Assembly: GCA_943354835.1 (NCBI GenBank)
Contig: CALRDH010000002.1
Location: 106,270-170,269 of the forward strand
Origin: a candidate division WWE3 bacterium
GTDB taxonomy: Bacteria; Patescibacteriota; WWE3; 2-01-FULL-39-13
DNA: 64,000 bases
Direction: 5' to 3'
This document shows positions 29,317 to 49,902 of this stretch, one piece after another (the stretch's first letter is position 1; every line of letters begins with the position of its first letter). The position numbers and the translations under genes are program-made. Below the pieces are notes generated by a model. The model worked only from the letters and a program-made list of their open reading frames with translations, was not told the origin of the DNA and did no database searches.

Positions 29317-30122
29317 CGTAGTGTTTGTTTTGCAAAACTTATTAACTCGTCAACCTCCAAAGCGCGTACTTGTATGTTGCAAGCAAAAAGAGCAGAAGAA
29401 AAACGCATAGTCATGTCATGTAACTTTTTCATACTCGCCAGCTTTTCATTGGGTTTTGTCGGGTTACAAGATACCGTAAAAACGGCATAATGCTTTGTTG
29501 CTGTAAAGTTACTTTCATTTATCATATCGGTTAAGTTTTCAATGTACTGTGCAATCAAAGGCTCGCGTTTAGTATTTGATTTTGCATAGAGCGAAAAGAA
29601 ATGTTTTGAGTAGTCTTGTGTTTTAGCCTGTTCTTTTTTCACAATAAACTGCACTTGATCTGGCAAAACATGAAGCATTTGTTTTAACTTTAAAAAGAAG
29701 TGTTCTCGATCTTGATCATTTAAAAGTGATATATCAAAAGGCTCAACTTCTAAAAGTTGAATAATGCTATTTTTACGAATAACCAAGTTGTCTTGAATAG
29801 TAAAATCAACAAAGTATGGTTCTAGTTCTTTTTGTCTAAATGTTTTCTTGCCCTTTTTAAACATAATTGCTCTTGGAAAAATTTTATAAATTGGTTGATT
29901 ATCAATTCTTTGAGTTATAAATCCTACAAAAGCTATCTCAAGTACAATAAGTGAAGCCAAGTACATATTCCAATTAAATGCATGAAATACATATGTAAGC
30001 AAAAAGTACAAACTTCCTGCAATAAACACCCCTCCAACTAAAAAGATGGTGCTGTCTGTAAAAAACAGACTTCTTAAAATGTGTTGACGAATATCGTCTT
30101 TATATATTCTTACGTTTTTCAT
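29313..30122 (-). CDS. Small T4SS-associated membrane protein (hypothetical)
   Basis: Two TM helices; translationally coupled (4-nt overlap) to VirB4; start trimmed to MKNVRIY. Confidence 0.4.
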   Translation of the reverse strand: MKNVRIYKDDIRQHILRSLFFTDSTIFLVGGVFIAGSLYFLLTYVFHAFNWNMYLASLIVLEIAFVGFITQRIDNQPIYKIFPRAIMFKKGKKTFRQKELEPYFVDFTIQDNLVIRKNSIIQLLEVEPFDISLLNDQDREHFFLKLKQMLHVLPDQVQFIVKKEQAKTQDYSKHFFSLYAKSNTKREPLIAQYIENLTDMINESNFTATKHYAVFTVSCNPTKPNEKLASMKKLHDMTMRFSSALFACNIQVRALEVDELISFAKQTLR

Positions 30123-31863: not shown

Positions 31864-31865
31864 AG

Positions 31866-32150
31866 TTATACGGTTCCACCAACAAATTGCTTAATAATTC
31901 CAGCCAATGTTGCGGCACCAAATACAAGTAAACCACCGATTAGAATATTGATGATCCAACCTCTAAGTGTTGATTTACGCTCAGTATCATCTCCGCTCAT
32001 AACTAAAAAGATACCAAGTGTAGCAATGGCGATAGCCATAACAGGAAGAGAATACCATTGAAGAGTCTTGACTATACCCCATAGAAGACTGTCAAGGTTT
32101 GTGAACTGAATGGGTTGAGCTGCGTCATACCCCGGTATTCCGTTTGCCAT
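31866..32150 (-). CDS. VirB2/TrbC-like pilin subunit
   Basis: 94 aa with two hydrophobic helices in hairpin arrangement; first gene of the operon. Confidence 0.5.
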   Translation of the reverse strand: MANGIPGYDAAQPIQFTNLDSLLWGIVKTLQWYSLPVMAIAIATLGIFLVMSGDDTERKSTLRGWIINILIGGLLVFGAATLAGIIKQFVGGTV

Positions 32151-32366
32151 AATAGTTTATTTTTCTTTGGGGGCAGAACTTATAACAACACTATGAGATT
32201 AACAAGCGTAGTATAATTCTACATATAGTAAATGTCAACAATAAATGTTGATTTAATAACCTAATTCAAAATTCCGAAGGCAATATTGTGTTTAATCGTG
32301 ATTTATTGACTATAATAAGTTCAAGACACTGAGTAGAGTAAAAAGGTTATAATTACAAATAACGTT

Positions 32367-35042: not shown

Positions 35043-35081
35043 ATTTTTTTTGAGAGTATTATAAAAAGAACAGTTAAGAAT

Positions 35082-37034
35082 ATGAAAAATATTACAACAA
35101 ATATTACAAATAAGATTGACAAACAGTCACCTGATCTTCGTCAAGAAATGTTGGATAAGTTAAAAAAGCTATACCCCCCTCTTTTTGATAACGAAGGCAT
35201 GTTAAATCAAGATGAGCTAGAGCAATTAGTAAGTGACTTTTCTACTCCCCAAACAGAGAAATATGAGTTTAACTGGGCTGGTAAACAGCAATCCAAGAAA
35301 AAAGCCTTTACTGCAAGTAAAGCAACTCTTAGAAGCGATGAAAAACGCAGTGTGGATTTTAATAATACAGATAATCTTATTATTGAAGGTGATAACTTAG
35401 AAGTCCTCAAGCTTTTACAAAAATCCTACTTTGGCAAGATTAAATGCATATACATTGACCCCCCCTACAATACCGGAAACGACTTTATTTACCCTGATGA
35501 CTATAGCGAAGACAAACAAGCTTATTGGGAAAAATCAGGAGTTAAGCAAGACGGAGTTAAATTAGATACTAATACTGATTCAAGTGGTCGTTATCATAGC
35601 AAGTGGCTCTCAATGATGTATCCAAGACTTCTTTTGGCTCGCAATTTGCTCAAAGAAGACGGAGCAATATTTGTAAGTATTGACGATAATGAAGCTCACA
35701 ATCTTAGAAAACTGATGGATGAGGTGTTTGGGGAAGAAAATTTTATCACTCAAGTGGTGGTGCAAACTAACCCAAGAGGAAGGTCTTTGGATAGACATTT
35801 TGCTAAGACCTTAGAGTATGTAATAGTGTATGGCAAAAATGCGGATACAAACACTTCAATTTTTGAAATTCAAAAGGGAGAAAAGGCTTTAGCCCAATAT
35901 AATAAAGGTGATAGTCAAGGACAGTATAGATTGCTTGAGCTAAGAAATAGAAACCCTGTTTTTACAAGAAAGAATAGACCTAATTTGTTTTACCCTATCT
36001 TTATCAATAAAGATACTGGCGAAGTTTCCTTGGAAAAAGACGAAGTATTTTCGACTGAAGCACTACCTCTTAATTCTAAAATGGAGGAGGGTTGTTGGAC
36101 TTGGGGTAAGAAAAAGTTTGAGAAAAATAAAAAAGACTTGATTGGGAACCTTGCCTCAACTGGTGTTTGGAGAATATTTCGAAAAGACTATATCCCTAGT
36201 GATGGTGCAACAACAAAAGAGAAAACATTGTGGATTGATTCATCCCTTAATCACGAAAACGGCAAAGAGGAAATGGCCGACTTATTCAATACAAGTGGTA
36301 GTAGTATACCTTTTGACTTTCCTAAATCCGTTGAATATTTAAAAAAAATAATAAATGTATCAACACAGTGGGGTGTGAACGATGTTTGTTTAGACTTTTT
36401 TGCTGGCTCAGGTACTACGGCTCATGCAGTGATGGATTTGAATAAAGAAGATGGAGGTAATAGGAAATTTATCTTGATTCAAATTCCAGAATCTACCGAT
36501 GAAAAGAGTGAAGCCTACAAAGCCGGATACAAAACCATTTCTGAAATTTGTATTGAGCGAGTTAAGCGCGCAAGTAAAAAAATTATAGATGGGGGAAATA
36601 AGATTGATGCTGGATTCAAAGTATTTAAGCTTGCTTCTAGCCATTTTCCAGAAAATACTTTTGCCCCTAATCCAGAAAAAAATGATGAAGAAAATAAAAA
36701 AGCCTTAGTGGCATATATTAGTAAGGCTATTTCTCAAAAGGGTTTGTTTAAAGATGGAGTTGTTGATTTAATTTATGAGATTGCTCTGAAAGATGGATTT
36801 GAGCTAACGCTCAAGATGTATAAGGTAAAGGAATTTGATGAAAATGTGGTTTATAAAGTCACAGACAGTCATAAAGAAGCCCTTATTTGCGTGGATGATA
36901 GTTTGGAAGATGCCACTATCAAACAACTTGAACGCCACAAAGACCAAAGATTTATTTGTTTACATACAAGCCTAAACACTACAAAAAAGTGGAATTTACA
37001 AAATATTCTTGGAAGTAATTTATGGTTGGTGTAA
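35082..37034 (+). CDS. mod: Type III N6-adenine DNA methyltransferase Mod subunit (beta class)
   Basis: Motif IV DPPY before motif I FFAGSGTTAHAV. Confidence 0.9.
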   Translation: MKNITTNITNKIDKQSPDLRQEMLDKLKKLYPPLFDNEGMLNQDELEQLVSDFSTPQTEKYEFNWAGKQQSKKKAFTASKATLRSDEKRSVDFNNTDNLIIEGDNLEVLKLLQKSYFGKIKCIYIDPPYNTGNDFIYPDDYSEDKQAYWEKSGVKQDGVKLDTNTDSSGRYHSKWLSMMYPRLLLARNLLKEDGAIFVSIDDNEAHNLRKLMDEVFGEENFITQVVVQTNPRGRSLDRHFAKTLEYVIVYGKNADTNTSIFEIQKGEKALAQYNKGDSQGQYRLLELRNRNPVFTRKNRPNLFYPIFINKDTGEVSLEKDEVFSTEALPLNSKMEEGCWTWGKKKFEKNKKDLIGNLASTGVWRIFRKDYIPSDGATTKEKTLWIDSSLNHENGKEEMADLFNTSGSSIPFDFPKSVEYLKKIINVSTQWGVNDVCLDFFAGSGTTAHAVMDLNKEDGGNRKFILIQIPESTDEKSEAYKAGYKTISEICIERVKRASKKIIDGGNKIDAGFKVFKLASSHFPENTFAPNPEKNDEENKKALVAYISKAISQKGLFKDGVVDLIYEIALKDGFELTLKMYKVKEFDENVVYKVTDSHKEALICVDDSLEDATIKQLERHKDQRFICLHTSLNTTKKWNLQNILGSNLWLV

Positions 37035-37060
37035 ATAAATAATGCATATATCTAAGCTGT

Positions 37061-39076
37061 ATGGATAAACTCTTACATGAAAATATAGAAATCGGCGGCG
37101 AAGGAGTTAAATCAATCCTAGCTAAATTTAAACCAGAAGAGGCGATAGCTGAGTTTATCTGGAATGGTTTTGATGCAAATGCAACTGAGGTCAATCTCGA
37201 CTATGATGTTTCTAGGGAATTGGGTGAGGTAGAGTTTATAAAGATATCAGATAATGGAACTGGAATTCCTCAAAATAAATTAAATAACAAATTCAAACCG
37301 TTTTTTGAATCAGAAAAAGCCAAAAATGGAAAAGATAAATCTCACCACTCTCTTACTCACGGAAAAAATGGAATTGGGCGCCTGACATTTTTTACCTTCG
37401 CAAACAAAGCTTGCTGGACAACAAGATACGAAGAAGAAACGCAGATAATTAAAGAATATGATATTGAGATTCAATCAAGGGATATAGAAAACTATACAGG
37501 AAGCAATACAGATCTTAGAGGTACGAATGAGAAGACAGGAACAGTTGTTGAGTTTACAGGCATAAATAAGTTAAACAAATATGACTTTGAAGGAAAAGTG
37601 TTAGAGCATCTACGCCAAGAGTTTGGTTGGTTTTTAGAAATATTTTCAAAATTAGGCTATTCACTTAATATTAATGGTAATAAACTTGACTATTCTAAAA
37701 TTATTGGAGATAGGGACTCAATAACTTTAAAGTATGCTGCTAATGACACGCAGTTTAATCTAGGTTATATTCGCTGGAATACGCACCTGAAAAATGAATA
37801 CTCAAGATTTTACCTTTTAAACAGCAAAGGGAAAGAGATTTGGAAGGACACTACCAAACTTAACAATAAAGGAGACTCTTTTTACCACAGCATTTTTGTT
37901 AAGAGCGATTATTTTGATAATTTCACTTACGATGAACAACAGTCAAATGGAGAAATAACACTTTTTGGTCACTCCAAAGAAGATGAAGAATATAAATATA
38001 TTGAAGAAGAAATAACAAATTATTTAAGAAAAAAAAGAAAACCTTTTTTAAAAGAGTTTGCAGAACAGTTAGTTAATACATATGAAAATGAAGGTATCAT
38101 GCCCACTTTTCAATCAGAATGGGATAAACCTAGGAGGGAAGAATTAAGAAATGTCATAAAGAATCTCTATGAGGTCGAGCCAAAAATATTCAGTCAATCA
38201 AGTATTGAACAAAAAAAGACATTTGTTAGACTACTAAATACTTTGTTAGATACTGAAGATAGAGAACGTATTTTACAGATTATTAAGGAGGTAGTAGATC
38301 TTGACGAACAAGAGCAAACTGATTTATTAGATCTACTTAAAGCTACAAAACTAGATAGAATAATCTCTACAATTAAATTTATTCAAAATAGATATAAAAC
38401 AATTGATGAGCTGAAAGCGATTGTTTTTGATAAAGAATTAAAAGGAAATGAACGAGACCATATTCAGAAATCAATAGACTTTAATTATTGGATATTTGGG
38501 GAGCAATACCATTTACTATCTACAACTGAGGCAAAGTTTGATACAGCATTAAGACAATACACTTCATATTTAACTGAGTCGCAAGACATAATTCCTATTA
38601 CACATATAGATAAAAATAAAGAAATGGATATATTTATGTGTAGACAAATGAAAGGAATCAATAAAATTGAAAATATTGTAGTGGAACTAAAAAGCCCTAG
38701 TGTGAATTTGGGTGAAAAGGAAGTGAGTCAAGTGAAGAAGTATATGAGTGTGATTTTAAGCACTGATCAATTCAATAGTGACAATACGTACTGGGAATTT
38801 ATCTTAGTTGGCAACAGATTTGATTCTTCTGGATATATTGAAGGGGAGCTTGAAAATAGTAAAGGGCATGGTGAACGAAATAATGGACTAATTTTTAAGA
38901 ACGATAAATATAGAATTTATGTAAAAAAATGGAGTGAGATTTTTGAAGAATTTGAAATAAGGCATAAGTTTATTGAAGAAAAGTTAGAAATCGCACGAGA
39001 TAGTATTGCATCAAATTATTCTTCCGCAGATGAAATTATTCAAATACAACAAGATAGATCTCAAAAAGTTATTTAA
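37061..39076 (+). CDS. GHKL (MORC/MutL-like Bergerat-fold) ATPase fused to C-terminal PD-(D/E)xK nuclease-like domain
   Basis: Bergerat motif I EFIWNGFDANATE (ExxxNxxDA), motif II ISDNGTGIP, G-box HGKNGIGRL; C-terminal MDIF...IVVELKSP candidate D...ExK; 26 bp downstream of mod on the same strand. Confidence 0.55.
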   Translation: MDKLLHENIEIGGEGVKSILAKFKPEEAIAEFIWNGFDANATEVNLDYDVSRELGEVEFIKISDNGTGIPQNKLNNKFKPFFESEKAKNGKDKSHHSLTHGKNGIGRLTFFTFANKACWTTRYEEETQIIKEYDIEIQSRDIENYTGSNTDLRGTNEKTGTVVEFTGINKLNKYDFEGKVLEHLRQEFGWFLEIFSKLGYSLNINGNKLDYSKIIGDRDSITLKYAANDTQFNLGYIRWNTHLKNEYSRFYLLNSKGKEIWKDTTKLNNKGDSFYHSIFVKSDYFDNFTYDEQQSNGEITLFGHSKEDEEYKYIEEEITNYLRKKRKPFLKEFAEQLVNTYENEGIMPTFQSEWDKPRREELRNVIKNLYEVEPKIFSQSSIEQKKTFVRLLNTLLDTEDRERILQIIKEVVDLDEQEQTDLLDLLKATKLDRIISTIKFIQNRYKTIDELKAIVFDKELKGNERDHIQKSIDFNYWIFGEQYHLLSTTEAKFDTALRQYTSYLTESQDIIPITHIDKNKEMDIFMCRQMKGINKIENIVVELKSPSVNLGEKEVSQVKKYMSVILSTDQFNSDNTYWEFILVGNRFDSSGYIEGELENSKGHGERNNGLIFKNDKYRIYVKKWSEIFEEFEIRHKFIEEKLEIARDSIASNYSSADEIIQIQQDRSQKVI

Positions 39077-40577
39077 TTAAATATTTCAAAATAGTGTATA
39101 TCTTCAACATCGCCATTGTGTCCATTTCACAGTACCTGAGTAGGTTTTCTTTAATTGTTTCTTTTTTTGAAGTTTCTGCATTTTCATATACCATTTCAAA
39201 CCAGCTCGTCATGGCTGTTGCGCCTTCTCCAATTTCGAGTTCATTGTATGAAAAATCAGGAGCAAAAAGTGGAAGCACATTTTTTATTGAGTAACTCCCT
39301 TTTAGTTTTGGATCTGCGTACCATTGTTTTTGAAATATATCCATGAGGTCATAGATCCGCTCATTCATATTTAGGCAAAAATCTGCAAACTGAGGGTGAA
39401 TTTCTGCCATGCGTTTATTTTGTGTTCCTTCAAATGATTTATTCCAAACGATAAGCGAGCCTTCTTTTCCAATGTGTTTTTGCAGTTCTGTCAAAAAGTT
39501 TGGGATAGGATCAATTTGAGACGTTTCTATAAATTCAAAATGTTCTAGCTCTCGGCCTTGTTGTTGTATGTGCAGTGACCACTGAAAAGGCATCTGATCA
39601 AATGGTTTGTAACCATCATACATAGGAATAGCCGGGTTATATGATTCATAATCGATAAAATAAAGTGGGTAGATTACTCCACTTAAATCTTTTTGAATCT
39701 TGTTTGAATCGATCTCAACCTTATTGTTTTGAGCAACATCTACTTGAAAGCGTTGTATTTTTGAAAGTGAAAAGTCTTTTGGTACATCAAAAACACTTTC
39801 AATACCTTGATCAATAAGATCTCGCATCTTGGCAACATTCGCCGATAATCGATTAATATCGTAGATAGAATAATCTGGAAGATCTGGGTGACAGATATCG
39901 AGACAAGGACACTCTTTTGGTTTAATGCATTTATCAGCAGATTGTAGATTGTTTTTTTGGGCTGTAGTAAAAGCTTCTTGTCGTAACTCTATAACTTCAT
40001 CGGTTAGTTTGCTAACTTCTTCTGTAATATCAGAGACAGTGAATAATTCAGATAGGCTTACATCTCCACTGCGTACATATTCTTTATTAAGATGTAGTAT
40101 GTTTAGCGTTCCTATGTCGTAAGACTCTCTAAATACGAGGTATTGAAAAGTGGCATCGAATTTGTGTGTCTTTTTAACATCATTGGTACTTTTGATTTCA
40201 TAAATATCCCACTTATTTGTTTTGACGTTTTTAATGAGAACATCTGTTCTTGCCTGAAAGTTGCCGTGTATGTGTGTTGGCTGTAAAAATACATTATCAG
40301 GGTCAATCTTGTAACTTGGGATGAGGATGTTCTGAATGTATTTTTCAGCTTGCTCTTCTACCTCATACCCTTGATCGAATAGGTGTTGAATAAAAACATT
40401 TATTTCTTTTTCAGAAAGCTTATTGTTTTTCAGTGCCCAGAGATGCCGTGGAGCATCGAGGAAAGCTATAAAGTCGGTTTTTGTGATCATCATGTATCTT
40501 CCGATTATACTGGAAAATGAAATTATATCTCTCATTATTGGGTGGTTTTCCCTTTTCTTCCTATCATGCTTCTTCAT
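39069..40577 (-). CDS. DUF2779-like dual nuclease: RecB/Cas4-like PD-(D/E)xK with 4-Cys cluster plus C-terminal DEDDy 3'-5' exonuclease-like domain
   Basis: N-terminal D(VLI)...YEIK...QYLVF (D, ExK, QxxxY) and CIKPKECPCLDIC cluster; C-terminal Exo I DYE, Exo III YCEMD; 8-nt convergent overlap with 37061..39076. Confidence 0.55.
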   Translation of the reverse strand: MKKHDRKKRENHPIMRDIISFSSIIGRYMMITKTDFIAFLDAPRHLWALKNNKLSEKEINVFIQHLFDQGYEVEEQAEKYIQNILIPSYKIDPDNVFLQPTHIHGNFQARTDVLIKNVKTNKWDIYEIKSTNDVKKTHKFDATFQYLVFRESYDIGTLNILHLNKEYVRSGDVSLSELFTVSDITEEVSKLTDEVIELRQEAFTTAQKNNLQSADKCIKPKECPCLDICHPDLPDYSIYDINRLSANVAKMRDLIDQGIESVFDVPKDFSLSKIQRFQVDVAQNNKVEIDSNKIQKDLSGVIYPLYFIDYESYNPAIPMYDGYKPFDQMPFQWSLHIQQQGRELEHFEFIETSQIDPIPNFLTELQKHIGKEGSLIVWNKSFEGTQNKRMAEIHPQFADFCLNMNERIYDLMDIFQKQWYADPKLKGSYSIKNVLPLFAPDFSYNELEIGEGATAMTSWFEMVYENAETSKKETIKENLLRYCEMDTMAMLKIYTILKYLIK

Positions 40578-40582
40578 TCTAT

Positions 40583-40702
40583 GGGGTTAAAATCATCTGT
40601 CAAAAGGTGGGTTTTTAGCTCGTTCCTCACTAAAAATCCTTTTTGACTTTGCTTTGCTCCGCAAAAACTTTTGACAGACCACTTTCGTTTGATTTTCACC
40701 CC
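40583..40702. repeat. Long imperfect inverted repeat in the DUF2779/RadC intergenic region
   Basis: Arm 40583..40610 GGGGTTAAAATCATCTGTCAAAAGGTGG; reverse complement of arm 40668..40702 shares GGGGT(T/G)AAAATCA and TCTGTCAAAAG blocks. Confidence 0.6.
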
Positions 40703-40782
40703 ATGCCCCTTTTTTTGCATGATAGGAATAAAAATCTTATCTGCAAGTTATTAATTTATTAAAGAAAGGGGGTGAGATCGAG

Positions 40783-41199
40783 ATGATTATCAAACTGCAA
40801 GATGCCAAAGTATCAGTAGCTAGTCCTAAGTGTGTATTTGAGCTGTTAAAAGCTTACTTTCTGACACTTGATGATTTTGATCAAGATAAAGAACACTTCT
40901 TTGTTTTTCATCTGGATATTAGAAACAAAATCAAAATTATGGATTTGGTTAGTGTTGGTACTCTAACACAGTCATTAGCGCATCCAAGAGAGGTATTTAC
41001 AAGAGTTATTCATAAGAGAACACCAGCGATAATACTTGCCCATAATCATCCATCAGGCGAAACAAGTCCGTCTTATGAGGACATAAGCATAACTAAACGC
41101 TTGTGTGAAGCTGGAAAGATACTCTCAACAGATGTAATAGATCACATCATTTTTACTGATAATGAGTTCTATAGCTTTAAAGAGCATGAGCTGATTTAG
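40783..41199 (+). CDS. RadC-like JAB/MPN domain protein
   Basis: JAMM motif HNHPSGETSPS; strong RBS AAGAAAGGGGGTGAG. Confidence 0.85.
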   Translation: MIIKLQDAKVSVASPKCVFELLKAYFLTLDDFDQDKEHFFVFHLDIRNKIKIMDLVSVGTLTQSLAHPREVFTRVIHKRTPAIILAHNHPSGETSPSYEDISITKRLCEAGKILSTDVIDHIIFTDNEFYSFKEHELI

Positions 41200-41233
41200 A
41201 GGTAGTAGTTATTAATTTATTCCCTTAAAGGAG

Positions 41234-41560
41234 GTGAAAGTTATGAAATTATTAACAAAGGAATTGTTGATGAGGTTTGAGAAGGTTGGCAGACAAGAGG
41301 ATGATAAAGATCCGATTGTTATTGCAAAGTTCTTTAATCCAACAGGAGCAGGTACTTGGCTTGCAACTGAGTACGATCCTCATTCAAAAGAATTCTTTGG
41401 ATTTGTATCGATATTTGGTGATTACAACGACGAGTGGGGATACTTTTCTCTTGATGAGCTAGAAAGCTACATTGGTAGATTTGGCTTAGGCATTGAAAGA
41501 GATAGGTATTTTACCGAGAAACGAATGAGTGAGGTAATGCCAAGTGCAATACTAGAGTAA
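41234..41560 (+). CDS. Small conjugative-element-associated protein (DUF2958-like, hypothetical)
   Basis: 108 aa with RBS AAAGGAGGTG; such families commonly sit next to RadC in ICEs; assignment tentative. Confidence 0.35.
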   Translation: MKVMKLLTKELLMRFEKVGRQEDDKDPIVIAKFFNPTGAGTWLATEYDPHSKEFFGFVSIFGDYNDEWGYFSLDELESYIGRFGLGIERDRYFTEKRMSEVMPSAILE

Positions 41561-41568
41561 GTTAAACT

Positions 41569-41600
41569 AATCCGTGGGTAGTGAAAGCTACCTGCGGATT
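41569..41600 (+). terminator. Hairpin (13-bp stem, 6-nt loop), copy 1 of repeated terminator-like module
   Basis: AATCCGTGGGTAG-tgaaag-CTACCTGCGGATT; module GAGTAAGTTAAAcTAATCC... repeated at 41795. Confidence 0.55.
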
Positions 41601-41641
41601 TAGTTTCAGATTATTATTAATAGTTAAAGGATATAAAAAAT

Positions 41642-41800
41642 ATGATAAACCCATTACTAACCGAACCATTTGAGAGTGAGATTTTAGAGCTGATTGAAAC
41701 GAGTGACGAGTTTACAACCAGCGACCTACAAGGCGTTGTTACCGTGTTGGTGAACAAGATTATGATTAAAGGGCACGAGATTTTGAAAGAGTCAGAGTAA
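41642..41800 (+). CDS. Small acidic hypothetical protein (52 aa, below ORF-track cut-off)
   Basis: ATG at 41642, stop TAA at 41798-41800; followed by hairpin copy 2. Confidence 0.25.
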   Translation: MINPLLTEPFESEILELIETSDEFTTSDLQGVVTVLVNKIMIKGHEILKESE

Positions 41801-41808
41801 GTTAAATT

Positions 41809-41851
41809 AATCCGTGGGTAGTTGCCAACAGCTACCTGCGGATTTTTTTAT
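41809..41851 (+). terminator. Rho-independent terminator (hairpin copy 2 plus T-tract)
   Basis: AATCCGTGGGTAG-ttgccaacag-CTACCTGCGGATT followed by TTTTTTTA. Confidence 0.7.
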
Positions 41852-41862
41852 ATTCAGGACTT

Positions 41863-42216
41863 TTGATTAATTTTATAAATTTAGATTATAATGAATTCAT
41901 GTACAAAATATTTGTAATGGTTCCAGTAGAAAATACAGATGAGATTATTACTGCAATGGCTGATGCGGGGGCTGGAGTTATAGGCAACTACACTCATAAT
42001 GCTGTTATTACCGCTGTTATGGGTAATTGGATGAGTGAAGAGGGCTCTAACCCCACAATTGGAGAAGTAGGCAAAATGAGCAGAGAATCAGAAAACAAAG
42101 TAGAAATGGTTTGCCCAGAAGATAAATTAGAGGGAGTTGTTAAAGCAATGCGAAAAGTTCACCCATATGAAACAGCCGCAGTTGATGTAATTAAGTTAGA
42201 AGATCTAAAATACTAA
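41863..42216 (+). CDS. CutA/PII-like small protein (NIF3 insert-domain-like)
   Basis: C-terminal HPYETAAVDV motif; likely true start at MYKIFVMVPV (41899). Confidence 0.4.
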   Translation: MINFINLDYNEFMYKIFVMVPVENTDEIITAMADAGAGVIGNYTHNAVITAVMGNWMSEEGSNPTIGEVGKMSRESENKVEMVCPEDKLEGVVKAMRKVHPYETAAVDVIKLEDLKY

Positions 42217-42217
42217 T

Positions 42218-42667
42218 ATGAATCAACAGGAACTTAATCAAAAAGCAAAGGATATTGTAAATTCAAACAAATACGTGAGTCTTGCTACAACAGATCAATC
42301 AAGACCTTGGATTGCTCCAGTTTTTTACTGTAAAGATGACAAATACAACTTTTATTTCATCTCTCAACCAGAAAGCTTACACATAAAGCATCTAAAGTTT
42401 ACGAATGAGGTTGCTTTTGCTATTTTTGACTCACACCAAGAGGAAGGCCAGGGAAATGGTGTTCAGGGATCAGCAAAAGTTGAATTATTGGAAGGTGACC
42501 AGATTGAAGATGGCTTGAAGTACTACTCGACGAGTTTTATTGAAATGACCACGGAATCTTTAAGAGAACCTTCTCCATATAGGTTGTACAAAATGATTCC
42601 AGAAAAAGTATTTATACTGGATGCAGAAGCAGATGTAGACAAGAGAATTGAAGTGTTTTTTAATTAA
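42218..42667 (+). CDS. PNPOx-like FMN-binding split-barrel protein
   Basis: KYVSLATTDQSRPWIAPVFYCKDDKYNFYFIS characteristic of the general stress protein 26 / PNPOx fold. Confidence 0.6.
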   Translation: MNQQELNQKAKDIVNSNKYVSLATTDQSRPWIAPVFYCKDDKYNFYFISQPESLHIKHLKFTNEVAFAIFDSHQEEGQGNGVQGSAKVELLEGDQIEDGLKYYSTSFIEMTTESLREPSPYRLYKMIPEKVFILDAEADVDKRIEVFFN

Positions 42668-42672
42668 ATTTT

Positions 42673-43437
42673 TTATTCGTCAATCTCCACCTCGCTCCAC
42701 ACATCCCCAGTTGCACCTAGTTGTTTAATTTGTTCTTTGGTTGTTGTTTGAAATGTTAGGTTTTCTATCTGCTCGTTTCTGCAAATTAGTTTTACTTTTT
42801 TAGTAACATATTCTTCAATTTCATTGTTTGGGCAGATAAATAATATTGTGGGTATCTGTTCTTGTTTGATCCAGTCTCCTTTTGTAAAGAAGGTTATATA
42901 TTGGTTTATTCGGTTAAGAATGAAAAAGCGGGGTTTTTCTGGAAATATCTCTGCTATTAAGTATGGTTTCGTCTTCCCCTTGCGGAAGACGAAGAAAGGA
43001 AAAATTTCTTTGATAATCCCGTCTAGTGAGTATTCTGATCTTGTGTAGAAGGTAAGTCCTTCTTTTGTGCCGTATTTCTTTAGTAGATTGATATAAATGT
43101 CTGCAATTAAAACACAGTTTTCAATAAATTTAGTGGATCTTGTATCTTCTTGATATAGCTTTGTAATGTATGCCTGTTCTGCGTAATCTTGAGTTTTGAT
43201 AAACTTCATTCCATTAGTTTTAAGATAGTAAACCGCCGGTTGGTTATTTATTTTTGAAGTTGTATCTAATTTTCGACCTGTATAGCCTTTATCCGTTAGA
43301 TCTTTTAGCCATGCGTTTATTCTGTTGTATGTTTTGTGGTTAAGTAATGTTTGTATCTGGATTCTATTGAGGAATCTGAATTTATAGAGTAAATATAGTA
43401 TAGTTTTTTGTGTATTTGTTATTGTAGGTAGTTTCAT
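42673..43437 (-). CDS. Replication-relaxation family protein (wHTH)
   Basis: N-terminal LTNTQKTILYLLYKFRFLNRIQIQTLL; directly downstream of the coupling protein. Confidence 0.5.
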   Translation of the reverse strand: MKLPTITNTQKTILYLLYKFRFLNRIQIQTLLNHKTYNRINAWLKDLTDKGYTGRKLDTTSKINNQPAVYYLKTNGMKFIKTQDYAEQAYITKLYQEDTRSTKFIENCVLIADIYINLLKKYGTKEGLTFYTRSEYSLDGIIKEIFPFFVFRKGKTKPYLIAEIFPEKPRFFILNRINQYITFFTKGDWIKQEQIPTILFICPNNEIEEYVTKKVKLICRNEQIENLTFQTTTKEQIKQLGATGDVWSEVEIDE

Positions 43438-43581
43438 TTTTTTATTTAATGATTCGTTCTTTTTGTAGTACGAATTTTTCTTTTCCTTATTCATAAGGAA
43501 TAAAGAGTACAAAAAATATTTTGTTTTTCCTTTTATATCAACTAATACTCAATTAATTTTGTGTTAGCTGATGACACAAGA

Positions 43582-46260
43582 TTATATTGATTTTCTTTTA
43601 GATTCACCCTGTTTACTGCTATCTTTTTTCTTGCTCTTAGACTTTTCGGCTTTTGTTGCAGGTTCAACTATTTTTAACTTTTCATCTAACTTTTTTAAAG
43701 TCTCTACATCTGCACCATATTTAGCTCTTGAATTTTCAATTACCAACTGCTCAATGTTTTCATCCTTGGGAGTTGTAAAGTCATAAGTACTACCAGTAAA
43801 TGCATCTTGTGGAATTACACCATTTATTTTTATGTAAAAGTTAAATGAAGGTAAGTTTGCTATTTGGTGTTCTTTAACCTGAGGAGCAAATAAAGGTAGA
43901 ATAAAATCCTCATCTGTTGGGTTGCTTGTTCTATAGGAAACAACGGTACCTACATTTGCAAGAATAACTTTTAACAAGTCTTGATCTTCTATTTGAGAGA
44001 TGGTTTGGTGTGCAAGTATTGTATCAAGCCTGTATTTGCGCGCTTCGGATAAGATTTGGGCAAAAGTCATAGTAGCAAAGTTTTGAAACTCATCTATGTA
44101 TAAAAAGAAATCTTCACGCTTATCTTGTGAAATATGGACTCGGTTTAAGGCGGCTAACTGCAACTTAAGAATAAGTAAGCTTCCTAAAAATGACGAAATA
44201 TCCTCACCTATTTTCCCTTTTGATAGATCACAAATAAGAATCTTTTTGTTGTTCATAATATCGTCAAAGTCAAGTTTGCTATTTTCTTGGGTCAAAATGT
44301 TTCTGGTTGTTTTAGTGGTAAAAAATCTACCAAGTTTATTGGTAATTGGTGAAATAAGCTCAGCTCTTTGGAAACTTCCAAAACCTTTAAACTCTTTCTC
44401 CCAGAATTCTTTAAGTAACGGATCTTCAAGTTTGGAAACAATGGTATCTCTCAAGTTTTTATCTACCAGCATTTTATATGCGGTAAGTAATGTGGGTTTT
44501 TCTGTTGAAAGAATGGCTAAAATAGTATTTCGCAGTACATGTTCCATTCGAGGGCGGGCAGTATTAGATGGGTAAAGCTTTAAAAACACAGAAATAAGGC
44601 TTGAAACGATAAGATCTTTTTCCCGTTCCTTTTCAACATCAGATAAACCTTGGGTCATTTGCAATACATTTAAACCAATAGGATGCTCAAGGTCATACGG
44701 ATTGAAGTAAATTACATCTTTGATTCTATCTTTTGGAATAACACCAATTAGCCTAGTTGCTAAATCTCCGTGTGGATCCATTACAGCTACACCTTTCCCG
44801 TTTTTTATATCTTGATAGATCATTTGTAGCAAAAGTGTGGTTTTGCCCATACCAGTTGCACCGATCAGGTACATGTGCCTTCGTCTTTCTTCTATCGTTA
44901 ATCCTATTGGGGTAATGCTTTCACCATGAATATTGTGCGCAAATACAATATCAAGATTTGAAGGATTTTTAAGACTAATTGGTGCTGGTAAATGTGACGA
45001 TTTTATTGATTGTAAGTCCTCGGTTTGAGTAGTTAGTGTAAATGGAAAGTGATAAATTGTTGAAAGTTCTGATACTGAAAAGATTGGATTAGAAGTAAAC
45101 GAGAACAATCGATACTTGAGACGTAAAAAGTTTAGCTTGGTAAAGAGTGAGTTAAAGTGTGCTGATTTAACCTTAAGAGACTGATAGCTAAGATTGGTAT
45201 ATGTTGCAAAGTTTCCTATAATCCCCTTTTTTCTAAGCTCAATATTATTTTTAGAAGTTCCAACAACTAAAAGTCGCATAGTTACCTCAAATAAATCTTG
45301 ATTAATTTTTGACTCTACAACTTCTTGTATCTGGCTTTGTTTTGGTGTTAGTTCAATTATTTGATCAGTTGTACTCTTTTCTTGTTCAAGCACGTATTTG
45401 CTTGGATATTTTGGCGATGCCATTGCAAAATCCATAATCCATTTAGTAAGGTCTTTTAGAAGAAGTACAAAAAGATCAAAAATAAAAAGTGGGATTACTT
45501 TTAGTGTATGTAATGTTTTTGCAAAAGAACTGTTTTGAATATATGAAACAATTTCTTTCCCTTCGTAAATACGTTTTTGTAGCTTAAATAAGTAATCTGC
45601 AATGTGCCCATGGTAGACAGGCGTTACAGGAGAAGTGACCAATTGCAAAGTAATTAACTCATCTGGCTCAAGTTTTGTCATCTGTCCGGTGATATATGCA
45701 ATCGGATCGTGCTCACCAAGTACATTTTGTTCTTTTAACGGAAGTACAAAGTGATTTTTAAGTTTGAATTCGGTAAACGAATATTTTTTGCTTTCTAAAT
45801 CTTCTAAAGACTTTGGCAAGTGGTCGGAAATTTGCTGAATTTCAATACCTGGAAGGTACGAAAGTAAGTTTTTACGAAGAATTGAAACATATTCTTTTGG
45901 TGTATAAATTATGTAGCGAATTCCATCACTTCTGCTAGAAGCTATTTCATAGCTGACACGTTTTTTGTTTCTGAGTAATCGGTCTAAAAGTGTTGGCTTT
46001 GTATCAAGCGAATGAAGAATAGTAAATAGCTGTTTGGTAGTAAATGCCGTTTGTAATGATATAGATGGAGGTTTTATCTCTAATAAAACATACGAGCCTT
46101 GAAGTGATTTTTTAAACTGTAGATATTTAAGAACACTAAGACCGATAAAAAAGAAAAAGGTGGCAAAAAAAACCACAGTAATCCATGAAATATTTGCTCC
46201 TATTAAAATTAGTTGGGCAAGTGTCGGTGGGATTACATCAGACCAGTTTATATTTTCCAT
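43582..46260 (-). CDS. Type IV coupling protein (VirD4/TraG/TraD-like T4CP)
   Basis: N-terminal TMs; Walker A LIGATGMGKTTL, Walker B FFLYIDEFQNF, AHQTISQ motif; lysine-rich C-terminal tail. Confidence 0.85.
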   Translation of the reverse strand: MENINWSDVIPPTLAQLILIGANISWITVVFFATFFFFIGLSVLKYLQFKKSLQGSYVLLEIKPPSISLQTAFTTKQLFTILHSLDTKPTLLDRLLRNKKRVSYEIASSRSDGIRYIIYTPKEYVSILRKNLLSYLPGIEIQQISDHLPKSLEDLESKKYSFTEFKLKNHFVLPLKEQNVLGEHDPIAYITGQMTKLEPDELITLQLVTSPVTPVYHGHIADYLFKLQKRIYEGKEIVSYIQNSSFAKTLHTLKVIPLFIFDLFVLLLKDLTKWIMDFAMASPKYPSKYVLEQEKSTTDQIIELTPKQSQIQEVVESKINQDLFEVTMRLLVVGTSKNNIELRKKGIIGNFATYTNLSYQSLKVKSAHFNSLFTKLNFLRLKYRLFSFTSNPIFSVSELSTIYHFPFTLTTQTEDLQSIKSSHLPAPISLKNPSNLDIVFAHNIHGESITPIGLTIEERRRHMYLIGATGMGKTTLLLQMIYQDIKNGKGVAVMDPHGDLATRLIGVIPKDRIKDVIYFNPYDLEHPIGLNVLQMTQGLSDVEKEREKDLIVSSLISVFLKLYPSNTARPRMEHVLRNTILAILSTEKPTLLTAYKMLVDKNLRDTIVSKLEDPLLKEFWEKEFKGFGSFQRAELISPITNKLGRFFTTKTTRNILTQENSKLDFDDIMNNKKILICDLSKGKIGEDISSFLGSLLILKLQLAALNRVHISQDKREDFFLYIDEFQNFATMTFAQILSEARKYRLDTILAHQTISQIEDQDLLKVILANVGTVVSYRTSNPTDEDFILPLFAPQVKEHQIANLPSFNFYIKINGVIPQDAFTGSTYDFTTPKDENIEQLVIENSRAKYGADVETLKKLDEKLKIVEPATKAEKSKSKKKDSSKQGESKRKSI

Positions 46261-46537
46261 ATAAATCAGGGCAATTTATGCTTGGAGTATATCAAAGCCT
46301 ATAGAGAAAGTGAAGGGAAATAAAAGAAAAGAGCGTCCTTTGGATAATAGAAATAAGTTGCAACGGTTGAAACCGTGCGTATGTAATTGCGTTGGCAATC
46401 ACACTTACTTATTTTATTTGTCCATTGGACGCTCTGGGTTGCACTTTCTTTTGCGAAATTCGAATAGACTGATAACAGAGTCACCTGTCGTTTTCACGCC
46501 CTTTGCAGGTTTAGTGTATTCAGTTTGTGATGTTTAA

Positions 46538-46897
46538 TCACTTACTGAGTAGCATGGCCATCAAACCCAGCAAGCCAGCCGCATCATCGTCTGGAGACTG
46601 TGCGACAACGCCAGAAGCGATATCATCTCCAACCTGATCATAGCCAGTCTTTGCACCGTAGTGCCGCCGTTGTAAGGTCTGTGCCATTGCACCCATGATG
46701 CCTGTCATAGCATCTCCGTCAGGATCATCGTACAAGGTGTTGGCATGAGCTTCGTGAGCCTCGATGATATACCCTTTCGCACGTAGCGCACCAGAGATGC
46801 GGGCTCTGAAGTCCGAGTCGCTTTCACCTAGTTGTTGGCCGGGAAGTCCGAACTCACTTGCCCTTTGTGCAGTGATATCTGTACCTGATCTCATCAT
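46538..46897 (-). CDS. Hypothetical protein in high-GC islet (Ala/Gly/Asp-rich)
   Basis: 119-aa ORF; GC far above the window average. Confidence 0.4.
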   Translation of the reverse strand: MMRSGTDITAQRASEFGLPGQQLGESDSDFRARISGALRAKGYIIEAHEAHANTLYDDPDGDAMTGIMGAMAQTLQRRHYGAKTGYDQVGDDIASGVVAQSPDDDAAGLLGLMAMLLSK

Positions 46898-46906
46898 ATT
46901 CTCCTA

Positions 46907-47203
46907 TTAACTAAAATTGAGAAAAGCACGACGGTCATAGAATGCGCCTTTGTAGAACATAGAAATGCGTTCAACACCTTGCGCATCCTTAACGGAAGTC
47001 CAGAAACCATCGGTTTTCCGTGTCCATCCAGTTGGGGGAATAACCTGGTAGAACAGGTCATCTGTCTCACCTGTGACTTGGAAACCTAACGTTTCAAGAC
47101 CAGCTTTTGAATCGCGATCTGCACCATGCTCGTGGGTGTTAACCTCACGGGCTAGTTGCCATTTCTGATTCTCGGCGACTGCTCTCTGAGTGGCTTCTTC
47201 CAT
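46907..47203 (-). CDS. Hypothetical protein in high-GC islet
   Basis: 98-aa ORF; a further ~48-aa ORF (47155..47298) upstream carries a perfect AAGGAGG RBS. Confidence 0.4.
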   Translation of the reverse strand: MEEATQRAVAENQKWQLAREVNTHEHGADRDSKAGLETLGFQVTGETDDLFYQVIPPTGWTRKTDGFWTSVKDAQGVERISMFYKGAFYDRRAFLNFS

Positions 47204-47636
47204 ACTGTAGAGCTGACGGCTTGTAAAACCTGGGTCATTCCTTTGCCGACTTCTTCAGGGCTATAGGGTGACTTGTAGGTACCACTCTTCTTGGACATGT
47301 TTGCCTCCTTGTTGCAAACTTGAACTTAAAATGTTGTTTGCTAATCCCAAATGGATAGCTTACTGAGTACTAAAATAGGTAATACACAATAAGCTACCCA
47401 TTAAGGTAAAGGCTAAATTCCGCAAATTATTAAAGTGCAAACTAACGCTAATCGTACAACAATTAGAAAAGCAATTTTTCTATAGCTATGCAATTAGTGC
47501 GGACATTATACTATATTATAGGCAAATATACAATACTATAGGGTTTGTATTTATCTAGGTGAAGTGCTCAAAAACAGCATTATGACTTATTCAAGGCAAG
47601 AATGCAGGAGAAAGAAGGACAAACTACAGGCTAGGC

Positions 47637-47897
47637 TTAAAACGGTAATACTTCTGACGATTTTACTTTTAGTGCTATACAAATATTTTCTATAACCGCA
47701 AATGTTGGGTTTTCTTCTCCACGTTCTATACCTGCATAATAAGTTACCGATATACCACTAGCTTTAGCTACTTCTTCTTGCGAAAGTTGCAAGCCCGAGC
47801 GTATTTCTCGTAGATTTTCGCCAAACTTTTGCTGGCTTTTTGGATTTACAGATGAATTCATAACCATAGTATATCTCAAATTTTTATAGTTCGTCAT
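47637..47897 (-). CDS. XRE-family helix-turn-helix transcriptional regulator
   Basis: HTH LSQEEVAKASGISVTYYAGIERGE. Confidence 0.8.
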   Translation of the reverse strand: MTNYKNLRYTMVMNSSVNPKSQQKFGENLREIRSGLQLSQEEVAKASGISVTYYAGIERGEENPTFAVIENICIALKVKSSEVLPF

Positions 47898-47937
47898 ATT
47901 TTACACTTTTTACTCTAGAAATTGCAAAATTTCCACT

Positions 47938-47979
47938 TGACACTACAACTATAGTTGTATAAACTATAACTATAGTTAC
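47938..47979. promoter_or_regulatory. Promoter with two 12-bp perfect palindromic operators
   Basis: TTGACA (47938..47943); CAACTATAGTTG (47947..47958); TATAAA (47959..47964); TAACTATAGTTA (47968..47979); lies between the divergent XRE gene and the recombinase operon. Confidence 0.7.
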
Positions 47980-47999
47980 AGTAATTTAGATACAAAACC

Positions 48000-48209
48000 A
48001 TGAGTAAAGAGTTACTAGAAAAATTTAAAAAGCTATATTACGAGAAGTTTGGTATTGCTCTTGGCAACGAAGAAGCAACAGCAATGGCAAATGATCTTGT
48101 TAACTTAATGAAAGTACTATTAGAACCAGATAAGTCGAAAAGTACAGAATTCAAGTTGGAAGAAAGGAGCGAATATGCGACTATCGAAACACAACAACAA
48201 TACATTTAA
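48000..48209 (+). CDS. Small hypothetical protein (possible excisionase/RDF-like accessory)
   Basis: 69-aa ORF immediately upstream of, and overlapping, the recombinase start. Confidence 0.3.
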   Translation: MSKELLEKFKKLYYEKFGIALGNEEATAMANDLVNLMKVLLEPDKSKSTEFKLEERSEYATIETQQQYI

Positions 48210-49902
48210 TCAACAAGACAAAATACCTGTAATTAACAGGTACTTAGTTTACTGTCGAAAAAGCAGTGAATCTGATGAGCGTCAAATTCAATCACTTCCC
48301 GATCAAATACACACATTAATGACTTATGTCTCTTCTCGTGGCTTAGAAACAATTGGAGAGCCATTGCAAGAGTCAAGATCGGCAAAGATTCCGGGTAGAC
48401 CCGTGTTTGATCAACTTGTTCAAAAAATAGAAGATGGCGAAGCAAACTGTATAGTTTTATTAAACCCTTCAAGGCTTTCACGAAATACTGTTGATACAGG
48501 GAGAATTATTTACCTTATGGACCAAGGTAAACTACAGGAAGTAGTTACTCCTTACCAGACCTTTATAAATAATCCTTACGACAAGTTTATGCTTAATTTG
48601 CTTTGTACACAGGCTAAACTCGAAAATGATAACAAAAGTGTAAATGTGCGAGAGTCGTTACAACTGAAAGCTGAACGAGGTGTATTCCCAGGAAAAGCAA
48701 GACCTGGATATAAAAACAACCACGAAAAACCGCAAGGTTTGCGAGATATTTCAGCAGATCCTGTAACTTTCCCTCTTATGCGAAAGCTGTTTGATTTGGC
48801 ACTTACAGGAAATTACAGTATAGAAAAACTGATAAAAGAAGCAGGAGAACTCGGTATAAGGAGTTCAAAAAGTGGTAAGCCCATTTGCAAAAGTTGGATG
48901 CACCGTTTGCTTCGAGACCCTTTTTATACAGGTAAATTTATGTATTGCGGAAAGCTGTATGAAGGCAACCACCCTGCAATGCTCAACGATGATGAATTTA
49001 ACCTACTTCAAGATATTGTTGAAGGTAGATCAAAAGGAAAATCCAAGAAACACGATTCTGCATTAAATGGACTAATCACATGTGGCGAGTGTGGATATCG
49101 CATTACTGTAGAAACTCACACCAAGCACTATAAAAATGGCAATTCACAGGTATTTGCATACTACAGATGTACCAAAAAGGGTACAGAGTGTAAGTGTAAT
49201 CAACCATATGTTTCCACCGATAAGCTTGAAAACGAATATGTTGAGGATCTTACAAAGTTCGAGCTTATACCAGAATTTGCTGATATAGCATTCCAAGCAT
49301 TAGAAGAAGTAAAAGAAAAAGATGACCATGTAAATAAAAATAGCCATGAGGCACAGCAGAAGGCATTAGAGAATATAAACAAGAGAATTAATAACCTTGT
49401 TTCGCTTAAAATATCTCCCGATAACTCAGACGGAAGTTTGCTTTCTGACGAAGAGTTTGGAGATAGAAAACGAAACTTGCTTATTGAGAAAGAACAGTTG
49501 ATGAAAAAATTATCTCAAACTGATCCTAAAAATACCGAGTGGGCTAATATTGCAAAAGAAAGTTTTAACTTTGGATTACTAGCTGCAAAACGATTTGAAA
49601 ATGGAACCTCAGAAGCCAAAAAAATTATCTTCAATACAATCGGCTCGTACCCAAAGCTAAAAGACAAAAAACTGCAGTACAAAGCCAAATACCTGTTTTT
49701 TAAGTATAAAGAAGGGGTAAAAGAGACAAATGAGAAAATGAGTCCGCTCGTACCTGCAAACGTAGTGTCAGACCAGTCTAATCTCGAAAATTATCTAAAA
49801 AATAGTTTATGGTGCCGAGGAGAGGACTTGAACCTCCAAACCCTTTCGGGCACAGCCACCTCAAGGCTGCGCGTCTGCCATTTCGCCACCTCGGCATGGT
49901 GA
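48175..49902 (+). CDS. Large serine recombinase (integrase)
   Basis: N-terminal resolvase catalytic domain YLVYCRKSSESDERQ (catalytic Ser); recombinase domain; zinc-ribbon CGECGYR...YYRCTKKGTEC; coiled-coil; last ~31 codons antisense to tRNA-Leu(GAG). Confidence 0.85.
   Translation: MRLSKHNNNTFNQQDKIPVINRYLVYCRKSSESDERQIQSLPDQIHTLMTYVSSRGLETIGEPLQESRSAKIPGRPVFDQLVQKIEDGEANCIVLLNPSRLSRNTVDTGRIIYLMDQGKLQEVVTPYQTFINNPYDKFMLNLLCTQAKLENDNKSVNVRESLQLKAERGVFPGKARPGYKNNHEKPQGLRDISADPVTFPLMRKLFDLALTGNYSIEKLIKEAGELGIRSSKSGKPICKSWMHRLLRDPFYTGKFMYCGKLYEGNHPAMLNDDEFNLLQDIVEGRSKGKSKKHDSALNGLITCGECGYRITVETHTKHYKNGNSQVFAYYRCTKKGTECKCNQPYVSTDKLENEYVEDLTKFELIPEFADIAFQALEEVKEKDDHVNKNSHEAQQKALENINKRINNLVSLKISPDNSDGSLLSDEEFGDRKRNLLIEKEQLMKKLSQTDPKNTEWANIAKESFNFGLLAAKRFENGTSEAKKIIFNTIGSYPKLKDKKLQYKAKYLFFKYKEGVKETNEKMSPLVPANVVSDQSNLENYLKNSLWCRGEDLNLQTLSGTATSRLRVCHFATSAW
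49810..49895 (-). tRNA. tRNA-Leu(GAG)
   Basis: Leu backbone with long variable arm; anticodon loop TTGAGGT; CCA encoded. Confidence 0.85.

Follow-up and report, generated by a model that had tools for sequence, protein, structure and literature searches.

Phage morons and other accessory cargo units are the described systems closest to a small GC-rich islet which we examined in a 64,000-nt stretch of DNA, referred to here as the window, from a candidate division WWE3 bacterium (assembly GCA_943354835.1, contig CALRDH010000002.1, positions 106,270–170,269 of the forward strand; coordinates below are window positions). The islet (46538–47298, minus strand) is, in what we regard as the probable explanation, the coding core of an autonomous moron-like cargo transcription unit of foreign origin of about 1.15 kb (46317–47450, minus strand). 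The unit would consist of a 5' leader, a frameshifted gene for a protein of 130 amino acids (aa), a gene for a 119-aa protein resembling DUF6197, a structured 3' untranslated region (UTR) and a terminator-like stem, and would sit between the XRE/serine-recombinase integration module and the type IV coupling protein (T4CP)/relaxation module of an integrated conjugative-type element. Like a moron, the islet forms an autonomous unit (leader/promoter region, open reading frames (ORFs) and terminator-like end) between two backbone modules, differs in composition from the element, has neighbours which vary, and is non-essential as one of its genes is frameshifted. Unlike morons, its 5' and 3' non-coding parts are conserved structured RNAs which travel with different ORFs, and its gene family repeats the GC discordance of a single coding sequence (CDS) in many unrelated AT-rich genomes.

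Three other systems invite comparison. Integron cassettes resemble the islet in being small units of foreign composition with an imperfect hairpin and a similar non-coding element alongside different ORFs, but here the hairpin lies upstream of the ORF in a leader containing the Shine-Dalgarno (SD) sequence, and there is no cassette array. We rejected an integron cassette as no R''/R' core sites (RYYYAAC/GTTRRRY) could be seen by eye and no IntI-type tyrosine integrase is found nearby, the neighbour being a serine recombinase. The leader is also similar to the SD-sequestering 5' UTRs of RNA thermometers and translational riboswitches, in that a CU-rich anti-SD tract is predicted to pair with the SD across a stable hairpin (predicted accessibility 0.02 in three leaders), but it matches no Rfam family and one leader (L012; the L numbers denote our comparison loci, which are metagenomic contigs of doubtful taxonomy) leaves the SD free. 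ArdA-type anti-restriction genes share with the islet a small acidic protein, a conjugative-type element and proximity to T4CP and relaxation genes, but the family of the acidic protein is also found in plainly chromosomal neighbourhoods. An ArdA/Ocr-type DNA mimic was likewise rejected, as the protein has no sequence or fold match to a known anti-defence protein and is only moderately acidic (isoelectric point (pI) 4.66).

Compositional analysis

The GC content of the islet is 0.499 compared with 0.347 for the whole window, and it ranks first (z = 5.1) amongst the 761-bp stretches of the window (mean 0.347, sd 0.030), with the runner-up at 0.438. Both flanks are back to a GC content of 0.30–0.39 within about 100–200 nt. 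As in genomic islets, synonymous codon usage deviates from the surroundings together with GC content: at third codon positions the latter (GC3) is 0.48 in the 119-aa ORF, 0.41 in a 98-aa ORF and 0.59 in a 48-aa ORF, compared with 0.23–0.30 in the adjoining T4CP, XRE and recombinase genes. Our reference set of 50 non-overlapping window ORFs of at least 100 aa has a mean GC3 of 0.26 (sd 0.04, maximum 0.34), and the two islet genes take the first and second ranks when compared with it (z = 6.2 and 4.2). The amino acid compositions differ too, with Ala, Gly, Asp and Arg making up 35% of the islet proteins versus 20% for the long ORFs of the window, and Lys, Ile and Asn 9.6% versus 23.5%. An earlier note, made from this DNA sequence alone, had described an islet of about 50% GC in AT-rich DNA, with proteins rich in Ala, Gly, Asp and Arg set against Lys/Ile/Asn-rich proteins elsewhere and an immediate return to AT-rich flanks, and our recalculation, in which GC content and codon usage were far from uniform, bears out this description.

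The two protein-coding genes

The islet had been credited with three genes but holds two. The 48-aa (47152–47298) and 98-aa (46907–47203) ORFs are in different frames and have 52 nt in common, intact homologues of the 98-aa ORF are 126–132 aa long, and the N-termini of these homologues match the first 22 residues of the 48-aa ORF and then the 98-aa frame as extended upstream. With one C inserted in the ATGACCCAGG run (minus strand; GGG at 47232–47234 on the plus strand), the gene yields a 130-aa protein which can be aligned over its full length with the intact homologues P0024–P0027. These alignments indicate that the 48-aa and 98-aa ORFs are one gene of about 130 codons (46907–47298, minus strand) broken by the loss of a single nucleotide in the C-run. 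The same lesion is seen in two further assemblies (L009 from Logan and L010 from ENA) of the same strain. The perfect ribosome-binding site which had been reported here was confirmed, with AAGGAGG at 47304–47310 preceding the ATG at 47298.

Programmed ribosomal frameshifting was considered and rejected: the site, AUG ACC CAG G, has no X XXY YYZ slippery heptamer and all homologues examined are in a single frame, and we therefore read the lesion as an ordinary frameshift mutation rather than recoding. Apparently 'split' hidden Markov model matches in other loci proved to be envelopes in the same frame and not frameshifts. The AlphaFold2 (AF2) model of the family (pLDDT 88) has a disordered N-terminus of about 28 aa followed by a helix packed on a beta-sheet; the 98-aa frame, which has no SD of its own, starts at the first helix of this predicted fold and still encodes the whole of the predicted folded domain. 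The gene has probably been inactivated, or its product truncated at the N-terminus, in this strain.

The second gene (46538–46897, minus strand) encodes the 119-aa protein and has its own SD, AGGAGA. Its family comprises 22 homologues (clusters at 90% identity), with 181 representatives at E ≤ 1e-3. The protein is acidic like the rest of its family (median pI 4.8) and is modelled by AF2 as all-helical with six helices (pLDDT 84). In comparisons with the homologues in L001 and L011, the non-synonymous divergence (dN) is about 0.2 and the synonymous divergence (dS) saturated, from which we take the gene to be protein-coding and under purifying selection. The nearest described family is DUF6197 from Pfam, whose small proteins are uncharacterised, so that belonging to it would bring no explanation. 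The 119-aa family resembles it in size, in its all-helical prediction and in its phage or mobile-element setting. Nine of the 22 members gave matches to it (best E 3e-4), but these were all below the gathering score (e.g., 14.7 bits compared with the threshold of 24.6 bits) and the window protein itself had no match at E ≤ 1. The sole paper which we found to mention DUF6197 is the genome announcement of a Gordonia phage of 62% GC (PMC10586128).

The 130-aa family is larger, with 729 proteins at E ≤ 0.01, and the few source names available for its members point to bacteria of the candidate phyla radiation (CPR) and to DPANN-type or other archaeal metagenome-assembled genomes. Neither islet protein matched anything in Pfam, PHROGs, NCBIfam or the PDB sequence profiles. 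Fold comparisons found nothing significant for either family. The best match of the 130-aa family, with E 0.2 and covering 45 columns, was an immunity protein of the polymorphic-toxin type; for the 119-aa model the best E was 0.59 in PDB and 1.0 in BFVD. Family-wide PHROGs scans found nothing consistent, and scans of longer family members found no extra informative domains. In viral contigs we found no members of the 119-aa family and the 130-aa family at one distant locus only.

We take it as shown that each ORF truly belongs to a conserved family of proteins, the genes of which stand alone in very variable, often mobile-element or phage-like, neighbourhoods. The neighbours of the family genes vary between loci, and the contexts are phage-like (L015, L016 and L006) or beside integrases, tRNA or tmRNA genes (L007, L013, L062 and L068). 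A third ORF, GC-rich and unrelated to either family, follows the 130-aa gene in L012.

We also noted a number of individual arrangements amongst the comparison loci. A 130-family gene is found 240 nt after a tmRNA gene (L068, 1889–2909), roughly 540 nt beyond a Gly-Arg-Lys cluster of tRNA genes (L062, 3014–4294), beside NUDIX and tyrosine integrase genes (L013, 788–2792), and after an rve integrase and tRNA-Glu (L007, 5496–8396); across the loci the proximity of the 130-aa family to tRNA and tmRNA genes was not clearly above background. The only recurrent neighbour we found is a 104-aa family (MTQGK.ITLPN.EEML.RLSKVCD...) without a Pfam match and GC-richer than its surroundings, which is located directly upstream of the 130-family gene in L007 (7653–7967) and L020 (5652–5966), and also in L028 and L034. 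In L089, a contig of 57% GC which carries the next-closest member of the 119 family, a near-identical sequence of about 25 nt stands before each of three genes in a row (at 121–147, 672–697 and 1085–1103; aaactgcc(c)aa(a)ggaga..gacgATG). This is a repeated translation-initiation context typical of a tight phage-like gene array.

Conserved RNA elements on either side of the coding sequences

The 5' leader (47299–47450, minus strand) is conserved and more stable than expected when folded (-47.3 kcal/mol, z = -5.1). It comprises a 5' motif (TTGCACTTTAATAATTTGCGGAA, 47418–47440), a CU-rich tract (47403–47413), a long hairpin (47346–47406) and the SD described above, all on the minus strand. Similar sequences precede the 119-family gene in two loci, L001 and L011, and the 130-family gene in a third, L012, and across leaders the 5' motif has the invariant form TTGCAC.TT...CG.AA, which is unique within the window (0 expected by chance). 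A covariance model, R1, which we built from the window leader and these three, recovered its source loci and found an independent match in L062 (E 9e-9), directly upstream of a 130-family gene only about 40% identical to that of the window, and a weak match in L026 (E 0.3), whose leader retains the motif with a hairpin of wholly different sequence. RNAalifold predicted 22 pairs for the six leaders, with double-sided compensatory changes in 13 of them. The conserved leader is itself only 28–40% GC.

In the proposed unit the leader would control translation through its SD, which would pair across the long hairpin with the CU-rich tract upstream of it or, in the case of the window, with the 5' motif. 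The predicted probability of the SD being unpaired is 0.02 in L001, L011 and L026, where it pairs with the CU-rich tract, and 0.34–0.36 in the window and L062. We note that AGTTTGCA is present twice in the window leader (47304–47330 and 47430–47442, minus strand), once in the 5' motif and once just upstream of the SD (GTTTGCAACAAGGAGGCAAAC). The copy near the SD could also fold into a local hairpin (GTTTGC/GCAAAC) whose loop contains the SD, and this leader may therefore pair in more than one way.

Upstream of the leader there is a promoter-like site (TTCACC-17-TATAGT, 47535–47563, minus strand) which is a candidate for the cassette promoter, found by a consensus scan in which the number of such sites was not above shuffle expectation and which is therefore weak evidence. 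When the 5' motif was considered as the -35 box of a sigma-70 promoter, no consistent -10 box was seen by eye at 16–19 nt. A search of viral contigs found 11 matches to the motif which were mostly inside coding sequence and without the hairpin, and we judged these to be chance. As a separate observation, L011 (a contig of 38% GC) has a strong match to LOOT RNA (396–518, minus strand; Rfam RF03000, 79 bits, where 46 is the gathering score). The match precedes the cassette leader by about 240 nt and is on the opposite strand.

The 3' UTR can be divided into two blocks, and the region as a whole (46255–46545, minus strand) folds with -76.4 kcal/mol (z = -5.0). Block 1 (46463–46521, minus strand) consists of three adjacent short hairpins with GCAA, GAAA and UGAC loops (GNRA/UUCG-type), followed by the conserved UAUCAGUC. 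The element was found in three loci only (the window, L001 and L011), each time after the 119-family gene. Block 1 has 97% of cells paired, compared with 33–67% in slid controls, and double-sided changes in 6 of 11 pairs; the model R2 matched only its three source loci in the 403 kb searched (E 1e-14 to 3e-16), and no 3' motif was found in viral contigs. Block 2 (46317–46435, minus strand) has several stems enclosed by one of 9 bp (AGAGCGUCC/GGACGCUCU), after which there is a U-run, and its inner hairpins and closing stem have counterparts of differing sequence in L011 and L001, as read from the alignment. The modelled structure is terminator-like and would mark the end of the cassette transcript. 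A simple terminator scan did not call block 2 because the loop is too large. The lower boundary of the cassette is marked by a promoter-like site with a TG (TTCACT-17-TATACT, 46286–46314, minus strand), found in the consensus scan and assigned to the downstream T4CP gene.

Searches of Rfam 15 with the leader and 3' element found no family; the sole match at E ≤ 1 in 45800–48200 was spurious (veev_FSE, E 0.97), and the only matches in the window above gathering score were tRNAs. The homologous elements in L011, L012, L062, L026 and L004 also had no Rfam match.

The surrounding element

On the minus strand the order is XRE gene, leader, 130-aa gene, 119-aa gene, 3' element, T4CP gene and Replic_Relax gene, which agrees with the placement of the islet in the earlier note between the T4CP promoter region and the XRE/serine-recombinase module. 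The XRE-family helix-turn-helix regulator (47637–47897, minus strand; Pfam HTH_3, E 1.8e-12) is directly upstream of the unit. Beyond it, a large serine recombinase gene (48175–49809, plus strand; Pfam Resolvase, Recombinase and Zn_ribbon_recom) abuts a tRNA-Leu(gag) gene (49810–49895, minus strand). On the other side are the T4CP gene (43582–46260, minus strand; Pfam TrwB_AAD_bind and TraG-D_C) and a gene for a Replic_Relax protein (42673–43512, minus strand; E 8e-9), the latter being the only one of the backbone genes in 27193–43512 that was checked against Pfam. The others were read from their translations and include a VirB4-like ATPase (27193–29316), a VirB6-like polytopic protein (30100–31863), a type III restriction-modification res/mod pair (32367–37034), a large ATPase-like ORF (37061–39076), RadC (40783–41199) and a DUF2958-like ORF (41234–41560). 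As is characteristic of genomic islets, mobility genes and a tRNA gene therefore adjoin (XRE, serine recombinase at tRNA-Leu, T4CP, Replic_Relax and VirB4). The layout is that of an integrated conjugative-type element, which is plausible but not proven. No relatives of the T4CP backbone were found in viral contigs.

It should be noted that the recombinase ORF as listed (48175–49902, plus strand) reads through the tRNA-Leu(gag) gene antisense, and as the last 30 or so residues are an antisense translation of the tRNA, the real gene probably ends just before it. The recombinase, tRNA-Leu and tRNA-Val genes follow one another closely, an arrangement like that of an integration site. Between the DUF2958-like gene and the gene which follows it, where there is no long ORF, we also observed a 29-nt direct repeat (97% identical), the copies of which (41554–41582 and 41794–41822) lie 240 nt apart and could represent iterons or an oriT/ori-type feature.

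Origin of the unit and alternative explanations

The rise in GC content is confined to the CDS in at least ten independent loci which carry one or other family in an AT-rich contig (0.30–0.38 in the 200 nt upstream, 0.45–0.55 in the CDS and lower downstream). Family members with a GC3 of 0.13–0.30 are found in AT-rich contigs and with a GC3 of 0.8–0.95 in GC-rich contigs, and as AT-encoded members exist, the protein sequence does not dictate a high GC3. The three AT-hosted copies of the 119-aa gene (window, L011 and L001; gene 50–53% GC, background 33–38%) form one clade and are the only copies with a leader and 3' element. In our tree this clade is nested in lineages from phage-like, GC-matched contigs (L089, 57% GC; L015, 56%; L016, 59%), with more distant members in contigs of 56–68% GC. 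Nesting within lineages of 55–60% GC makes an ultimately GC-richer source likely for the 119-aa gene, and as the sister cassettes share the AT-rich leader and 3' element, the cassette would have arisen a single time, with its spread through AT-rich genomes coming afterwards. The tree and the shared elements thus point to entry of the gene into AT-rich genomes from mobile elements of moderate GC-richness as the likely direction, with the assembled cassette spreading later among these genomes. Amelioration of the islet would be incomplete, its GC-richness being what is left of this foreign origin, and repeated transfer may have prolonged this state. The most likely role we can suggest for the two small proteins, which are soluble, cytoplasmic and acidic or neutral, is that, under translational control by the leader, they would serve the mobile element, for example by modulating the host or its defences during establishment, and not housekeeping.

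A number of observations weigh against a cargo unit of this kind. The 119-aa family is absent from all 55 metagenome loci in which the 130-aa family was found, and the pairing is seen only in this strain. Neither protein has a significant sequence or fold match, and homology points to no specific activity for either. The SD in the L012 leader is predicted to be free (probability unpaired 0.80), the leader and 3' RNA models rest on three to six sequences with rough E-values and were run over only about 0.5 Mb of comparison loci, the promoter calls are consensus matches only, and the terminator was assigned from its predicted fold. Exponential amelioration from a GC3 of 0.57–0.65 predicts about 0.34–0.39 compared with the observed 0.43–0.48, in an estimate which uses apparent per-lineage synonymous divergence and is unreliable with dS at saturation. 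Finally, we found no att-type direct repeats for the element, and patescibacterial type IV secretion system clusters are reported to be mostly not conjugative (PMC12102498).

Of the alternatives, the one that survives best, although we think it unlikely, is that a coding GC of about 50% is actively maintained by frequent movement (between AT-rich genomes or from a reservoir of about 50% GC), by selection or by GC-biased gene conversion. The three 119-aa cassettes have saturated dS and yet all have a GC3 of 0.43–0.48 in genomes of 33–38% GC. A GC discordance is seen at about 15 loci of the 130-aa family, and its copies in AT-rich backgrounds are bimodal, with 11 of 22 being the top-GC3 ORF of their contig and the rest matching the host; ten of these 11 discordant copies fall in a narrow GC3 band of 0.41–0.58, and they are scattered over several deep subclades at 45–65% aa identity. 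One such locus (L088) has a single-gene GC peak in a plainly chromosomal setting between a sigma factor gene and housekeeping genes. The end of the GC rise at the CDS borders, with conserved flanking RNA elements which are AT-rich, is also in keeping with maintenance, as is the presence of one leader before GC-rich ORFs which are unrelated to each other. In L001 and L011 these ORFs belong to the 119 family and in the window, L012, L062 and L026 to the 130 family, with the third ORF of L012 as a further case. Against this, we found no transposase, recombination site or terminal repeat able to move the unit, and AT-matched copies are present in the same clade, hence GC-richness is not needed for function. 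An excess of messenger RNA structure as the cause of the high GC was rejected as it did not exceed that of synonymous shuffles (z +1.0 to -2.0). The copies cannot be dated from saturated dS, and the few in contigs of 46–48% GC (L018 and L026) could be a reservoir. A more specific proposal of this sort, in which the leader, GC-rich ORF or ORFs and 3' element would be an undescribed small mobile cassette of AT-rich, small-genome (CPR/DPANN-like) microbes, with the flanking structures as handles for movement or expression and the coding GC actively maintained, seems doubtful to us.

The earlier note had suggested instead recent horizontal acquisition from a high-GC donor, possibly the host of an epibiotic bacterium. 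A horizontal origin is upheld by the foreign GC3 and the nested 119-aa clade, but neither a recent and direct transfer nor a high GC content of the donor was supported, and we consider a recent direct transfer of the block from such an organism improbable. The foreign amino acid composition, the distant 119-family members in GC-rich contigs and the weak link to DUF6197, with its Gordonia phage, are in its favour, and searches with the islet proteins did find relatives. However, these did not include a close relative in any named high-GC host, and there is no relative more than 78% identical outside the same strain amongst 5.8 billion proteins. The nearest (L001 and L011) are 71–78% identical to the 119-aa protein with dS saturated, and are single genes of about 52% GC in other genomes of 33–38% GC, where they have the same AT-rich flanking RNA elements. 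The inferred source is of moderate rather than high GC content (about 55–60%), the two genes have separate histories and are unlinked elsewhere, and the frameshift in one of them gives no sign of a fresh functional acquisition. We found no match when the islet was compared by blastn with plasmid and phage collections.

Two small co-oriented neighbours in a mobile element might also be a toxin–antitoxin or toxin–immunity pair, and the best, non-significant fold match of the 130-aa protein is to an immunity protein. This is very unlikely, as each family normally occurs alone, neither has a match to a toxin–antitoxin family in Pfam or NCBIfam, and here one partner is frameshifted with the other retained.

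The compositional change is abrupt in a metagenome-derived sequence, and the possibility that a fragment from a GC-richer organism had been wrongly joined into an AT-rich contig had been raised in advance. Such a mis-assembly is effectively refuted. The Logan assembly L009 (6297 bp, from the recombinase to the T4CP gene) and the ENA MEGAHIT contig L010 (568 bp) are both 100% identical to the window; at this level of identity they represent the same strain and support the assembly, not evolutionary independence. The inner junctions, between leader and CDS and between CDS and 3' element, recur in the unrelated contigs L001–L004, L011, L012 and L062.

Lastly, GC peaks in AT-rich genomes are often RNA genes, and a structured non-coding RNA gene with spurious ORFs might be suspected from the structured elements which flank the ORFs, but this reading is already refuted, as both ORFs belong to large protein families with conserved columns, dN is well below dS for the 119-aa gene, AF2 models the two proteins with confidence, nothing in Rfam matches and the CDS does not fold more strongly than its synonymous shuffles; the flanking RNA elements are real but separate from the ORFs.

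Significance

We therefore retain a foreign, moron-like cargo unit as the probable explanation of the islet. A compositional islet in a mobile element is ordinary as such, but in this case it led to two sizeable protein families (729 hits and 181 representatives, respectively) which lack annotation, Pfam membership and a recognisable fold and which behave as mobile cargo, and to two candidate RNA motifs new to Rfam and with compensatory changes, a SD-occluding leader shared by unrelated ORFs and a 3' UTR element rich in GNRA loops. The repeated peaks of about 50% GC over a single CDS in many unrelated genomes of 27–41% GC provide a natural system for amelioration rates, and the same peaks could reveal GC-maintaining forces in ultra-small AT-rich genomes, in which gene flow is poorly understood.

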